In this document: positions 2,484-7,057 of the stretch, piece after piece | Layout: every line of letters starts with the position of its first letter | Position numbering within the stretch: the first letter of the stretch is position 1 | Assembly: GCA_019058015.1 (NCBI GenBank) | Contig: JAHLWH010000033.1 | Coordinates: 1-53,586 of the forward strand | Origin: Promethearchaeota archaeon | Lineage (GTDB): Archaea; Asgardarchaeota; Lokiarchaeia; Sigyniarchaeales; SOKP01 | DNA length: 53,586 nucleotides | Reading direction: 5' to 3' | The notes under the pieces: generated by a model | Seen by the model: the letters and a program-made list of their open reading frames with translations, nothing else | What the model was told of the DNA's origin: nothing | Databases searched by the model: none | Position numbers and translations under genes: made by a program

Positions 2484-4226
2484 TTGAGAGTAGAAATGAG
2501 TGAAAAAAGTGAAAATAGTAAAACTCCTAAAACCGGTGGAGATTTATTGATTGAATGTCTTCTTCAGGAAAATGTGAAATATTTGTTTGGAATACCCGGT
2601 GGGCAACTTTTGCCTATGTATGATGCAGTATTTAGATGGGGTAAGGAGAAAGGAATTCATACAATACTTGTAAGACATGAACAAGCAGCAGCTCATGCAG
2701 CAGATGCGTATGCACGTGTTACTGGAGAATTGTGTGTATGTTTTGGGACTGTAGGACCGGGTGTAACCGATATGGTTCCTGGTGTCGGAGCTGCTTGGTC
2801 TGATAATATACCTCTTCTAGTAATTGGTGCTCAAGTAAAACGAGAATTAGACGGTAAATCTACACTTCAGGGCGATGTTGATCAAATAACCTTAATGAAA
2901 CCTATTACCAAAGCTCAATTAAGAATTCAAAATCCTTTAGAAATTCCTAAGATCATTCCTAGAGCGATAAGAATTGCGTTTTCAGGTCAAATGGGACCTG
3001 TTTATGTGGATATTCGTGAAGAAGCTTTTTATGGGCAAGTTCCTTCAGATGCAAAATATGAGATATTATCCCCCGATAAATATCGACCTCAATTAGGTGT
3101 TGCTGGTGATTCTAAAGCAATAGAGGAGGCTATAAAACTTATAAAAAATGCAAAAAAGCCTTTAATAATTTGTGGAGGAGAAGTTAATAGTTATAATGCG
3201 TCAGAAGAATTAAAAAAATTGTCAGAAAAGTATGCAATTCCTACGGCTACATCTGGTACGGGTATTGGGGGAATTTCAAGTGATTCTCCAACTCATTTAG
3301 GTGCTGGTGCAATTTCTGATGCTGTTATGAATGCTGCAAATAATGCGGATGTTGTAATTTCAGTTGGATGTAAATGGGATTATACAATGGGGTTAGGACT
3401 TCCACCATTATGGCCTAAAGATCAAAAATTAATACAGATAAATATTGATCCTTGCGAAATTGGAAAAAATAGACCCGTAGATGTTAGTATTGTAGGAAAC
3501 TGTAAGACTATACTAACTCAATTACTTGAAAAATTAGAAGGAGAAATACCAGAAAATTATTTTTCGCAGTGGAATATTGAACAACAGGAACAAAAAGAAA
3601 ATGCATTAAAAAGAAGATTAAAAAAATTTAATTCAGAAAACGTTCCTATACTTCCCGAGAGGTTTATCAAGGAAACGCTTGAATTTTTTCCATCAAATTC
3701 AATTATTATCATGGATAGTGGGAATACTTCATTTTATGCGGCAGAAAAAATGGATTTATATAAACCACGCCCTCCAAGAAGTACGTTAGCTTCAGTTGGT
3801 ATGGGACATCTTGGTGCTGGTATCGGCTTTGCGCTGGGTGCTAAGTTGGCTTATCCAGATAGGCAGACTGTAGTTATACAAGGTGATGGAAGCTTTTTAT
3901 TTAATGTTCAAGAGCTTGAAACTGCAATACGATATAATTTACCCTTTATTGTAGTTATTGCTAACGATAGCGCTTGGGGTATGATTAAGTCTGGACAATC
4001 AATGTTTTCAGGAAAACGATATTTTAATGTAGATATCCCAAATATAGATTATGCAGCAATTGCTAAGGGATTCGGTTGTTACGCTGAAACCGTTGAAAAA
4101 CCAGAAGAGATTAAACCTGCCTTACAGAGGGCTGTCAATTCGGGAAAAACTTCCGTCATAAATGTAATAATTAAATGGGACACACCAAAAGCTACGAAAA
4201 CATTGTTTAATTTAGGAATAATTTAA
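2484..4226 (+). CDS. Thiamine-diphosphate-dependent enzyme, acetolactate synthase / 2-hydroxyacyl-CoA lyase family
   Basis: FGIPGG, RHEQAAAHAADAYAR, GPG and the ThDP motif GDGSF...ND. The real start may be the ATG at 2496. Confidence 0.9.
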   Translation: MRVEMSEKSENSKTPKTGGDLLIECLLQENVKYLFGIPGGQLLPMYDAVFRWGKEKGIHTILVRHEQAAAHAADAYARVTGELCVCFGTVGPGVTDMVPGVGAAWSDNIPLLVIGAQVKRELDGKSTLQGDVDQITLMKPITKAQLRIQNPLEIPKIIPRAIRIAFSGQMGPVYVDIREEAFYGQVPSDAKYEILSPDKYRPQLGVAGDSKAIEEAIKLIKNAKKPLIICGGEVNSYNASEELKKLSEKYAIPTATSGTGIGGISSDSPTHLGAGAISDAVMNAANNADVVISVGCKWDYTMGLGLPPLWPKDQKLIQINIDPCEIGKNRPVDVSIVGNCKTILTQLLEKLEGEIPENYFSQWNIEQQEQKENALKRRLKKFNSENVPILPERFIKETLEFFPSNSIIIMDSGNTSFYAAEKMDLYKPRPPRSTLASVGMGHLGAGIGFALGAKLAYPDRQTVVIQGDGSFLFNVQELETAIRYNLPFIVVIANDSAWGMIKSGQSMFSGKRYFNVDIPNIDYAAIAKGFGCYAETVEKPEEIKPALQRAVNSGKTSVINVIIKWDTPKATKTLFNLGII

Positions 4227-4246
4227 TTCAAAGAAAAAAAAAGGGG

Positions 4247-4297
4247 TTTAAATATCAACTTCTAGAGATTGCAATAGGTTTATTTAATTTAACCTAT
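4247..4297 (+). promoter_or_regulatory. TATA box plus a downstream inverted repeat ahead of the micro-ORF
   Basis: TTTAAATA at 4247-4254 after a purine-rich BRE-like tract; ATAGGTT(4274-4280)-N10-AACCTAT(4291-4297). Confidence 0.45.
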
Positions 4298-4418
4298 GGG
4301 GTTTAGAATGAATAAGAAAAGCATTATTGCATTAGCAATTTTATTAGCGGTTGCATATGGAATCAATATGTCCATGGCAGGAGTAGCGATTCCCGGCTGT
4401 GCTGATGGGGTTCCGTAA
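4296..4418 (+). CDS. Unannotated micro-protein (40 aa, or 36 aa from ATG 4308) with a signal-peptide-like N-terminus
   Basis: (MGFR)MNKKSIIALAILLAVAYGINMSMAGVAIPGCADGVP*. GC-enriched relative to its flanks, with a TATA box upstream and a T-tract downstream. Confidence 0.7.
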   Translation: MGFRMNKKSIIALAILLAVAYGINMSMAGVAIPGCADGVP

Positions 4419-4438
4419 GTAATTAAAGCTAATAAACA

Positions 4439-4459
4439 TTTTTTTTCTTTTTTTTTTTT
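4439..4459 (+). terminator. Oligo-T archaeal terminator
   Basis: About 20 nt near-pure T tract starting 20 nt after the micro-ORF stop. Confidence 0.55.
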
Positions 4460-4539
4460 GAGAGGTTAAATGACTAATAATTTTTCAAAAAAACTTTTTA
4501 ATCTGTAATTCACAAAGAATTTTGGACATCTTTTATTGA

Positions 4540-5862
<1,323 letters not shown>

Positions 5863-5983: not shown

Positions 5984-7057
5984 ATGAGATTAGGTCAAAA
6001 AGAAAAACTGTTTTTAGATTTAATGAGAAATTTTATCGAAGCAATAAATGGAATAGAGGCTATTTGGATGTATGATCGAGAAGGTCTTTTGATTAGCAAG
6101 TATGCTCGAGCAGAATTATCTAAAGATGGATTAAATGAATATGAAAGAGAAGAAATTTATGGCGCTTTTGCTAGTATATTCGATCCTTTATTAAAAAAAA
6201 TTAATTCTGAATATAAAATTGGAGAATTGGGTTCAATCACATTTGAAACTCTAGATCATCACATAATTTTTCTAGAAGCAGGTCCAAAAGCTATAGTTCT
6301 CATCATAACAGTGTATGATTTGGAAATAAGTTCAATCTTACCATATTGTTATTTATTTGTTGAAAAAGTTGTTCAGATAATAGAAGAGAGTTTTGATTTA
6401 AAATATAACACAGTGATGATACCAAAATTAATAATTGGTAATTCCTTTGATAATACTTTAAAAAGTTCCTTTGTAAAAACGGAAAATAATGAGATACTTA
6501 TAGGGAGAAAAAAAGAAGTTAACTTTTTTAAGCTTATTATTATCGGGGATGCTGCAGTTGGAAAGACGAGTATGATTTCTCGTTTTGTAAAAGGGAAGTT
6601 TTCAACAGATTATAGACCCACTTTAGGGATCTCCATAACAACTATGCGATTTAATATTCAAGGTTTTGAAGATTCTGTAGTGCGTTTTTTAATTTTTGAT
6701 TTAGCTGGGCAAGAATTTTTCAAGCGTGTTAGACATATGTATTATTCAGGAGCACAAGCAGTTTTTGTAGTATATGATATAACAAGAAGAGAAACATTTA
6801 AGGGAGCAGACTTTTGGTTTGAAGATGCTAAAAAGGAATTGGGAGATATACCTTTTGTATTAATTGGAAATAAAATCGACTTAGAAAATGAAAGACAAAT
6901 ATCAACCGAAGAAGGAATGGAAAAAGCGAAGAATTTTAGATGCACATTCGTGGAGACTTCTGTAAAGACTAATGTAAATGTTGAAGATACATTTAAAATT
7001 TTAGGAATTGGAATGTTTTTTAGAAAAATTGATGATTTAGATGTTCCTGAATCTTAA
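5984..7057 (+). CDS. Roadblock-like domain fused to a Rab-like small GTPase
   Basis: G1 GDAAVGKT, G2 PTLG, G3 DLAGQE, G4 NKID, G5 ETSVK; Rab-like YYSGA and VYDIT. N-terminal helix-IEAIWMYDREGLLI pattern typical of roadblock/LC7. Confidence 0.85.
   Translation: MRLGQKEKLFLDLMRNFIEAINGIEAIWMYDREGLLISKYARAELSKDGLNEYEREEIYGAFASIFDPLLKKINSEYKIGELGSITFETLDHHIIFLEAGPKAIVLIITVYDLEISSILPYCYLFVEKVVQIIEESFDLKYNTVMIPKLIIGNSFDNTLKSSFVKTENNEILIGRKKEVNFFKLIIIGDAAVGKTSMISRFVKGKFSTDYRPTLGISITTMRFNIQGFEDSVVRFLIFDLAGQEFFKRVRHMYYSGAQAVFVVYDITRRETFKGADFWFEDAKKELGDIPFVLIGNKIDLENERQISTEEGMEKAKNFRCTFVETSVKTNVNVEDTFKILGIGMFFRKIDDLDVPES

Follow-up and report, generated by a model that had tools for sequence, protein, structure and literature searches.

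A lineage-restricted micro-protein family with a predicted outward-facing cysteine motif in Asgard archaea

Introduction

The pro-peptides of the Gram-positive RRNPP systems (Phr, PapR, NprX) are exported by the Sec pathway, and membrane micro-proteins of the MgrB, AcrZ, KdpF and CydX type are usually encoded in or near the operon of their partner; MgrB relies on cysteines that lie outside. In a signal peptide the hydrophobic region (h-region) measures about 7-15 residues and gives way to a c-region in which positions -1 and -3 are occupied by small uncharged residues; the -3/-1 rule of signal peptidase I asks for small residues at these two positions. Small proteins are largely absent from archaeal annotation, and the cultured Asgard archaea of the Lokiarchaeia type live in obligate syntrophic partnerships. 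In the available part of a survey dealing with cold-seep quorum sensing, six systems are covered (AI-2, DSF, c-di-GMP, AHLs, PQS and AHKs) and no gene-encoded secreted peptide is among them, nor does the term RRNPP occur in that part of the text (PMC12781772). Here, we report on a gene for a 36-residue micro-protein in a stretch of 53,586 nt from a Promethearchaeota archaeon (assembly GCA_019058015.1, contig JAHLWH010000033.1, forward strand), a stretch referred to below as the window, and on the relatives of this gene in other genomes.

Judged from its conservation, the micro-protein is a member of a real, undescribed and lineage-restricted family, and its cysteine motif is predicted to face outward. 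For proteins of this size the family is well supported: old paralogues are protein-identical, the members belong to one Asgard order, and a Pro-Gly-Cys motif in the part predicted to lie outside is invariant among the aligned members.

Results

The genome from which the window derives (G000) harbours a second, unlinked copy of the gene (copy B; G000:C187:23344-23451), which starts with TTG, has unrelated flanks and lies between a gene for a protein like tetratricopeptide repeat (TPR) and SNAP proteins and a beta-eliminating lyase gene. The two copies encode identical 36 residues, with 11 codons that differ synonymously and none that differ non-synonymously. Five pairwise comparisons within the genus gave 5-12 synonymous versus 0 non-synonymous differences; more distant pairs had an omega of 0.02-0.25, and two further pairs were saturated at synonymous sites. 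The three paralogues of one genome (G009) differ in 14-20 of 37 codons, every change being synonymous, and the three copies of another (G066) show 16-18 codon differences with 0-1 amino-acid changes. Summed over 13 equal-length pairs of within-genome paralogues, 188 codon differences are synonymous and 46 non-synonymous (one mis-registered pair, from G158, with 3 synonymous and 31 non-synonymous differences, was dropped and six pairs of unequal length were not counted). Because synonymous substitutions dominate, a chance open reading frame (ORF) and conservation of an RNA alone are excluded, and by this pattern of substitution the micro-ORF is a genuine protein-coding gene under purifying selection. 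The sequence-only reading from which this work started had proposed homologues, paralogues and dN/dS as checks, and these turned up full-length relatives in many genomes, a paralogue with an identical protein and dN/dS values of 0-0.25.

Searched with the single peptide, 24 of 61 related genomes gave full-length matches. With a profile made from 21 members (alignment A1), 35 of the 161 genomes of the class matched at E <= 0.01, each with 1-4 copies of 36-40 residues, so that the possibility of an ORF without conserved relatives falls away. By family, and not counting G000, which also matches, the hits were distributed over f1 (29/134), f4 (3/4) and f2 (2/14), with no match in families f3, f5, f6 and f7 among the same 161 genomes. 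By genus, the window's own had 4/4, g2 had 0/42, and g11 had 2/54, both of the latter weak and partial. Genera in which the family is present are g1, g3-g7, g9, g10, g16, g18 and g22, and it was not found in g2, g14, g20 and g21. Among 1.84 billion cluster representatives, searched exhaustively with HMMER, 25 proteins matched at E <= 0.001, 13 of them at or below 1e-10. The match ends at most 8 residues from the C-terminus in 22 of these, the longest extension beyond the motif is 22 residues, and the longer entries have N-terminal extensions only, of the type produced by upstream start calls. As the matches end near the C-terminus and the extensions are N-terminal, the peptide does not represent a larger secreted protein's 5' end; no long protein occurs among the 25 matching clusters, which removes the concern, raised by the sequence-only reading, that the gene might be such a truncated end.

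A scan of one genome per species for the pattern [AS]xAGVSIPGC gave 19 loci, 18 of them in metagenome-assembled genomes (MAGs) titled Promethearchaeota, Promethearchaeia archaeon or 'uncultured archaeon', and the remaining one, in a Burkholderiales MAG, a spurious match of 15 residues. A further 42 loci with 44 matches came from metagenome contigs; 40 of these matches stop exactly after the same final Pro. Viral contigs yielded 0 relatives of the micro-protein. By these distributions the family is lineage-restricted and confined to one Asgard order. Three family members searched against Pfam and NCBIfam had no match above cut-off; the ESM Atlas contains the sequence letter for letter and offered no usable look-alike, and in some public catalogues the ORF has been predicted by gene callers and is nameless there. 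When the window's genome was crudely screened for micro-ORFs that resemble a signal peptide and have both a TATA box and a T-run, 11 candidates emerged, among which only the two family copies looked genuine. One family copy elsewhere (L020; G012:C64:3708-3821, minus strand) has an in-frame TAA after 13 codons and is otherwise alignable over its full length; it is likely a pseudogene or the result of a sequencing error.

In the window, the micro-gene occupies a 322-bp spacer between a gene for a thiamine pyrophosphate (TPP)-dependent enzyme upstream (2484-4226; Pfam TPP_enzyme_N/M/C) and purA downstream (4549-5862; Pfam Adenylsucc_synt, E 2e-163). Its features are as follows.

4247-4254, + strand: TATA box TTTAAATA, 61 nt 5' of the start codon, read directly
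4274-4297, + strand: 7-bp inverted repeat ATAGGTT-N10-AACCTAT where the 5' end of the transcript is expected, a probable mRNA 5' stem-loop
4298-4302, + strand: GGGGT, a Shine-Dalgarno (SD)-like motif 6-10 nt before the start, paired into an extended stem in the predicted fold
4308-4418, + strand: coding sequence of the 36-residue micro-protein including the TAA stop (4416-4418)
4308-4379, + strand: residues 1-24, with the n-region MNKK, the h-region and a c-region ending in S-M-A, read from sequence as a Sec signal peptide or signal-anchor
4380-4415, + strand: residues 25-36, GVAIPGCADGVP, the GVSxPGC core and tail, predicted extracytoplasmic part or released 12-mer
4439-4459, + strand: T-run T8-C-T12, an archaeal oligo-T terminator 21 nt past the stop, read directly

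The TATA box, the inverted repeat, the ORF for a signal peptide with a Cys-containing peptide and the long T-run had all been pointed out in the sequence-only reading, and each was found again at these positions, the T-run as 8 T, C and 12 T with its function as terminator assumed from its type. Translation of 4308-4418 gives MNKKSIIALAILLAVAYGINMSMAGVAIPGCADGVP. An in-frame ATG upstream, at 4296, would give 40 residues; orthologues carry a stop or a non-start codon at that place, and the start is therefore put at 4308. As a query, the 40-residue version found only 2 homologous clusters, both unnamed. An Rfam scan of 3900-4900 with E up to 10 gave no score near gathering, the best being SAM-II on the opposite strand with 20.5 versus 44 bits. 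Downstream of purA, the window encodes a protein of 357 residues (5984-7057, + strand) with a C-terminal small GTPase domain of the Ras/Roc/Arf type (Pfam Ras, E 1.6e-47, residues 183-339) and an N-terminal part of ~180 residues without a Pfam match at 1e-5. GTPase-fusion genes resembling this one lie within ~2 kb of the micro-gene also in g4 and g16, which may be chance; Ras-type small GTPases are numerous in Asgard genomes.

The members of the family follow one pattern, from a KK n-region through a hydrophobic helix to YG[LI][ST]xA, GVSxPGC and a tail of 4-5 residues, and the position of the stop is kept as well. The consensus of A1 is MxxxKKxIxxLAxLLxVAYGLSMAxAGVSxPGCxExxP, in which all 21 aligned members share K4, L9, G25, V26, P29, G30 and C31. 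Across 35 unique sequences the columns of low entropy are two helix Leu, G21, S23, G28, V29, S30, P34, G35, C36, E38 and the last Pro; Cys is present in 32/35 and the final Pro in 35/35. The positive charge of the n-region lies in KK at residues 3-4, and alignment columns 6-7 hold K in 27/35 and 31/35 of the unique sequences, respectively. The hydrophobic core of the window peptide, IIALAILLAVAYGI, is followed by N-M-S-M-A|G, and the h-region measures 11-14 residues in the family. In the relatives [ST]-x-A stands at columns 23-25 (S in 31/35, A in 26/35), a Gly lies at about -5, and small residues alternate at columns 21/23/25/27 with large or variable residues between them. Both marks of the class cleaved by signal peptidase I, a basic n-region and an h-region followed by a c-region with small residues at -3 and -1, can thus be read from the sequence. 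The sequence-only reading had seen this build in a single peptide and it is conserved across the family; since the conserved n/h/c geometry fits the -3/-1 rule of signal peptidase I, it supports cleavage.

An AlphaFold2 model made with A1 has a helix over residues 3-25 and coil over 26-36, and the mean of the predicted local distance difference test (pLDDT) per ten-residue block is 87, 87, 60 and 52. Among within-genome paralogues (21 pairs) there are 1.1 differences per residue in GVSxPGC versus 4.2 in the n- and h-region, and in G019, G013, G069 and two of the three copies of G027 the paralogues differ only upstream of the core. On these counts the strongest constraint is on the part that is predicted to lie outside the cell. 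The tails beyond the Cys vary with lineage (ADGVP in the window's own genus, SEGQP or GEAAP in others); they are identical among the copies within a genome in g1, g4, g6 and g10 and not in G049, G158, G039 and G066. Divergent micro-ORFs in g17 (L024, L070) and g8 (L025) keep KK, the hydrophobic part, SYGLS-LA and a tail ending in Gly/Pro, and the Cys is absent from them. These sequences hint at a wider micro-protein superfamily in the order.

Signals for expression and the folding of leaders were counted over 41 family copies. A strict TATA octamer was found on the sense strand 41-100 nt before the start in 32/41, a run of at least 5 T within 90 nt past the stop in 40/41, and SD-like 4-5-mers, mostly GTGAT or GGTGA, within the 20 nt that precede the start in 31/41, the last being a count made with no shuffle control. 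Oligo-T tracts terminate archaeal transcription. The TATA box, the SD-like motif and the T-run recur in most copies and bear out the proposal of a stand-alone micro-gene with its own promoter and terminator. Between genus paralogues the ~20 nt from stop to T-run are near-identical (window 4419-4438, L002 1612-1631; GTAATT[A/C]AAGCT[A/G]ATAA...), unlike the coding third positions, which have diverged, and this segment may be a constrained element of the 3' untranslated region.

The inverted repeat ATAGGTT-N10-AACCTAT occurs once in the window and in 0/100 dinucleotide shuffles. The sequence-only reading suggested that the product may be under operator control, a proposal that finds no support across the family. 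Many copies have a palindrome between the TATA box and the start, and its sequence varies from copy to copy (ATAGGTT/AACCTAT in the window, TGCAAA/TTTGCA in copy B), with just the capacity for pairing being kept, in one orthologue with a G-U pair. Because pairing is kept while the palindrome sequence changes, a 5' stem-loop of the mRNA is favoured over a common operator, and a shared DNA operator was rejected as the principal explanation. The leader RNA of the window (4262-4312) folds at -9.4 kcal/mol with a z of -1.83, and 16/200 shuffles fold as well; these values come from a correct refold, since in the set of 41 leaders the window's own was 12 nt out of register. The leader of the G004 orthologue (L049) folds at -15.1 kcal/mol (z -4.1), and this fold includes the one G-U pair and has the GGUGAU motif paired. 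The mean z of the 41 leaders is -0.96 and 13 have a z < -1.5, showing a signal that is uneven across copies. Going by these predicted folds, the stem-loop could serve mRNA stability or translation control.

No neighbouring gene accompanies all copies, and three positions are recurrent. In the first, signal peptidase I (TIGR02228, 106 bits), Alba and the micro-gene lie on one strand, the micro-gene ~400 nt downstream of Alba, at five loci in g3, g4 and g6 (L032, L039, L043, L048 and L051). Gene order of this kind is suggestive of cleavage by signal peptidase I, and it is weak evidence, g3, g4 and g6 being members of a single family. A complex prediction for the neighbouring signal peptidase I (A3) and the micro-protein (A4) had a score of 0.02 with a mark of 0.32 and counts neither way.

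In the second recurrent position, a TPR/SNAP-like gene and a CdhD-like gene are near copy B in g1 (the window's own genus), g3 and g4. The TPR/SNAP-like protein (G000:C187:21553-23235; L002 1-1395) has ~546-561 residues, is TPR-like throughout and weakly matches the Pfam model SNAP (soluble NSF attachment protein), at E 7.5e-6 and with 26 bits where the cut-off is 25; from this match and its distribution it may be a conserved eukaryote-like protein of the trafficking type. Its gene is single-copy in 143/161 genomes, being present throughout f2 and f3 and in the majority of f1 genomes, with no match in f4-f7. It is present in 40/42 genomes of g2 and 51/54 of g11, where the peptide is found in 0/42 and 2/54 (weak), and in 0/4 of f4, though f4 has the peptide. 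As the gene is found without the peptide and is not found in the peptide-bearing f4, it is not a dedicated receptor; only copy B of g1 directly follows such a gene.

In the third position, a YGR210-like GTPase gene lies upstream in g7, g9 and g17, with or without a gene for a B12-type radical S-adenosylmethionine (SAM) protein. The radical SAM gene, of the B12-binding type and ~535 codons (L047 3402-5009; L070 6309-7910), is below all NCBIfam cut-offs and stands directly upstream of the micro-gene in g9 and g17 only, with the YGR210-like Obg GTPase further upstream. Orthologues were found in 25/161 genomes, in 0/5 of g1, the window's genome included, and in 8/54 of g11. With none in the own genus and 8/54 in g11, the gene is not a dedicated maturase and was rejected as such on its phyletic pattern. 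The suggestion in the sequence-only reading that the product might be a precursor like those of ribosomally synthesized and post-translationally modified peptides (RiPPs) hence finds no backing: no maturase is a consistent neighbour, and the recurrent radical SAM gene was not found in the window's genome or genus.

Discussion

With a confidence that stays somewhat short of even, we favour a Sec-targeted micro-protein whose outward Cys motif would be released by signal peptidase I as a peptide of 12-14 residues. The predicted course from export and topology to cleavage and an extracellular role would start with transcription from the gene's own TATA promoter, yielding a short monocistronic mRNA of ~170-190 nt with a 5' stem-loop and an oligo-T end. 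The basic N-terminus (KK) would remain in the cytoplasm, the hydrophobic segment of ~14 residues would engage the Sec translocon, and the conserved C-terminal part, which is GVAIPGCADGVP here and GVSxPGC-x-E-x-x-P as a family pattern, would be placed outside. By the positive-inside rule, KK on one side and Asp/Glu with the carboxylate on the other argue for a topology with the N-terminus in and the tail out. Signal peptidase I would most likely cut after small-x-small, here S-M-A|G, to give the 12-mer GVAIPGCADGVP; in most relatives the cut would come after [ST]-x-A, two residues earlier, to give a 14-mer. Once released, the 12-14-mer with its one free Cys might serve as a signal outside the cell, as a surface ligand, or as a thiol-reactive or metal-binding peptide.

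Several observations weigh against this account. The f4 members carry Trp or Phe at column 25, the would-be -3, and the residue ahead of GVS can be A, V, M, S, D, T, Q or N, because of which no single cleavage position fits every member and the site in f4 would have to shift. Among paralogues the tail beyond the Cys has 5.4 differences per residue and is no stricter than the signal part. The family is not accompanied by a gene for a receptor, a transporter or a processing enzyme. A search for RNA runs containing the locus found none; four contig-only runs, all from one study, contain about 1/4 of its words. The peptide has 26 consecutive uncharged residues, which might simply form a transmembrane helix. 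In g1 and g6 the paralogues are identical even in the 'signal' part, although 10-20 of their codons differ synonymously; disposable signal peptides rarely stay so identical, and a role of the whole protein in the membrane fits instead. Distant members, moreover, keep SYGLS-LA without the Cys.

The last three of these points lead to the foremost alternative, a single-pass micro-protein that would stay uncleaved, N-terminus in, as a permanent anchor presenting Pro-Gly-Cys at the outer face of the membrane, and that would either belong to a membrane complex, as its regulator or a small subunit, or provide the surface with an abundant thiol. Taken together with such a role, this is a realistic possibility to which we give appreciable weight, while holding it doubtful. 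The 26 uncharged residues suffice to span a membrane, and the 23-residue helix of the AlphaFold2 model ends just before the Pro-Gly break. The old paralogues of g1 and g6 are identical over the full length, with 0-1 non-synonymous codon differences; L9, L13 and G18 in the hydrophobic part are invariant or nearly so; and it is the Cys, not SYGLS-LA, that the distant members of g17 and g8 have lost. The model is confident, however, over residues 1-20 only, with a pLDDT of 60 over 21-30, and the small residues at every second position of columns 21-27 resemble an extended strand bound by a peptidase rather than the face of a helix. Nor is there a consistently adjacent partner gene, the contexts differing between copies, and several unlinked identical copies would be unusual for a stoichiometric subunit.

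Cleavage by signal peptidase I would be a step in a more specific proposal, in which several identical gene copies supply a diffusible or surface-displayed Cys peptide signal that is Sec-exported, trimmed by signal peptidase I and given its specificity by the tail. We consider this proposal unlikely, if attractive. If true, it would be the first peptide-based cell-cell signal in Archaea, and in the lineage closest to eukaryotes. Release by itself, if it occurs, would open peptide communication or surface thiol chemistry in the closest prokaryotic relatives of eukaryotes, whereas with an anchor, cryo-EM or proteomic data of Lokiarchaeia could be examined for a new membrane micro-protein that looks abundant. 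Either way, there is a concrete 12-14-mer that can be synthesized, the candidate peptides being GVAIPGCADGVP and MAGVAIPGCADGVP.

The small size, the hydrophobicity and the several unlinked copies in intergenic DNA would also suit a type I toxin-like peptide held silent by mRNA structure or an antisense RNA, and in some leaders, such as that of L049, the SD-like motif is paired; 13/41 leaders pass below a z of -1.5. The other 28/41 leaders are without unusual folding. Antisense TATA matches are scattered, occurring in 12/41 copies at no consistent position against 32/41 for the sense strand, and the scan of the 41 copies gave no positionally conserved antisense TATA octamer, a consensus scan being blind to a weak or distant promoter. 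The copies are syntenic across genera, unlike mobile toxin loci, and what is best conserved is a polar Gly/Pro/Cys motif and not the helix. We regard a toxin as quite improbable.

Lipobox-like processing, in which the Cys would be lipidated and the chain cut before it to leave a lipid-anchored hexapeptide or a lipidated anchor, appears more improbable still. An invariant Gly-Cys closes the hydrophobic segment, position -3 is often I or V, and the conserved motif could be a recognition site for the enzyme while the tail varies. The lipobox is given as [L/V/I] at -3, [A/S/T/V/I] at -2, [G/A/S] at -1 and C at +1, and relatively few lipoproteins are predicted in Asgard archaea, in the portion of the source drawn on here (PMC12462473). 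The family has Gly at -1 in 34/35 unique sequences; position -2, however, is Pro in 35/35, which the lipobox does not allow, -3 is I/V/M in 22/35 and Y/T/F/S/Q/D in 13/35, and merely 4-5 residues follow the Cys. Other classes of processing were rejected. CaaX-type lipidation acts on the cytoplasmic side on a Cys exactly four residues from the C-terminus; here, counting from the end, the Cys takes the sixth place in f1 and the fifth in f4, and the charges would place the tail outside. The class III site of type IV pilin-like signals has Gly or Ala directly before the hydrophobic stretch, and in the window peptide MNKK runs straight into S-I-I-A, with no G/A before the h-region.

A non-functional ORF (a chance ORF, a conserved RNA, a leader peptide of purA or a longer secreted protein reduced to its 5' end), which the very short ORF and the want of a matching database family might suggest, is hardly tenable in view of the overwhelmingly synonymous substitutions, the stop position kept across the family and the motif at or within 8 residues of the C-terminus in 22/25 matching clusters with a longest extension of 22 residues, and a purA leader is ruled out because the other copies adjoin unrelated genes.

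A full-text search of the literature, supplements being outside its scope, found no such peptide family in Asgard or other archaea, in agreement with the claim of the sequence-only reading that no peptide signal of this kind has been described in Asgard archaea; one preprint, known here in part, might list the family (bioRxiv 10.64898/2025.12.15.694180). Among described systems, the type I toxins Hok, TisB, Ibs and Fst are likewise small, hydrophobic, multi-copy and intergenic, with a structured leader as in some copies here; the micro-gene differs from them in that no antisense promoter was found, in its syntenic positions and in its conserved polar motif, predicted to lie outside. Lipobox lipoproteins, the substrates of bacterial Lgt/Lsp and archaeal AliA/AliB according to the part of the source used (PMC12462473), likewise have Gly-Cys where an N-terminal hydrophobic segment ends on the outer side, and the micro-protein departs from them by Pro at -2, a variable -3 and a 'mature' part of only 5-6 residues.

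MgrB, AcrZ, KdpF and CydX resemble the micro-protein in their 30-50 residues, single helix and very short outside tail, with a topology predicted to be N-in/C-out. There is no sequence relationship to them, and unlike their genes the micro-gene is present in 1-4 unlinked copies with changing neighbours. RRNPP pro-peptides are, by comparison of sequence features, the closest in build, though the pairing with a receptor that defines them was not found. The NCBIfam model TIGR04429 (Phr_nterm) gave the N-terminus of one relative 16 bits against a cut-off of 25 and did not match the window peptide, and with the Phr model below cut-off and no paired receptor an RRNPP cassette was rejected. The micro-protein further differs from these pro-peptides in being archaeal, in having no TPR receptor gene tied to it and no detected homology, and in a Cys core that is kept across genera instead of diversified. 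What it has in common with them is a precursor of ~40 residues with a basic n-region and a hydrophobic signal, encoded by a separate small gene, whose functional part would be expected at the extreme C-terminus.

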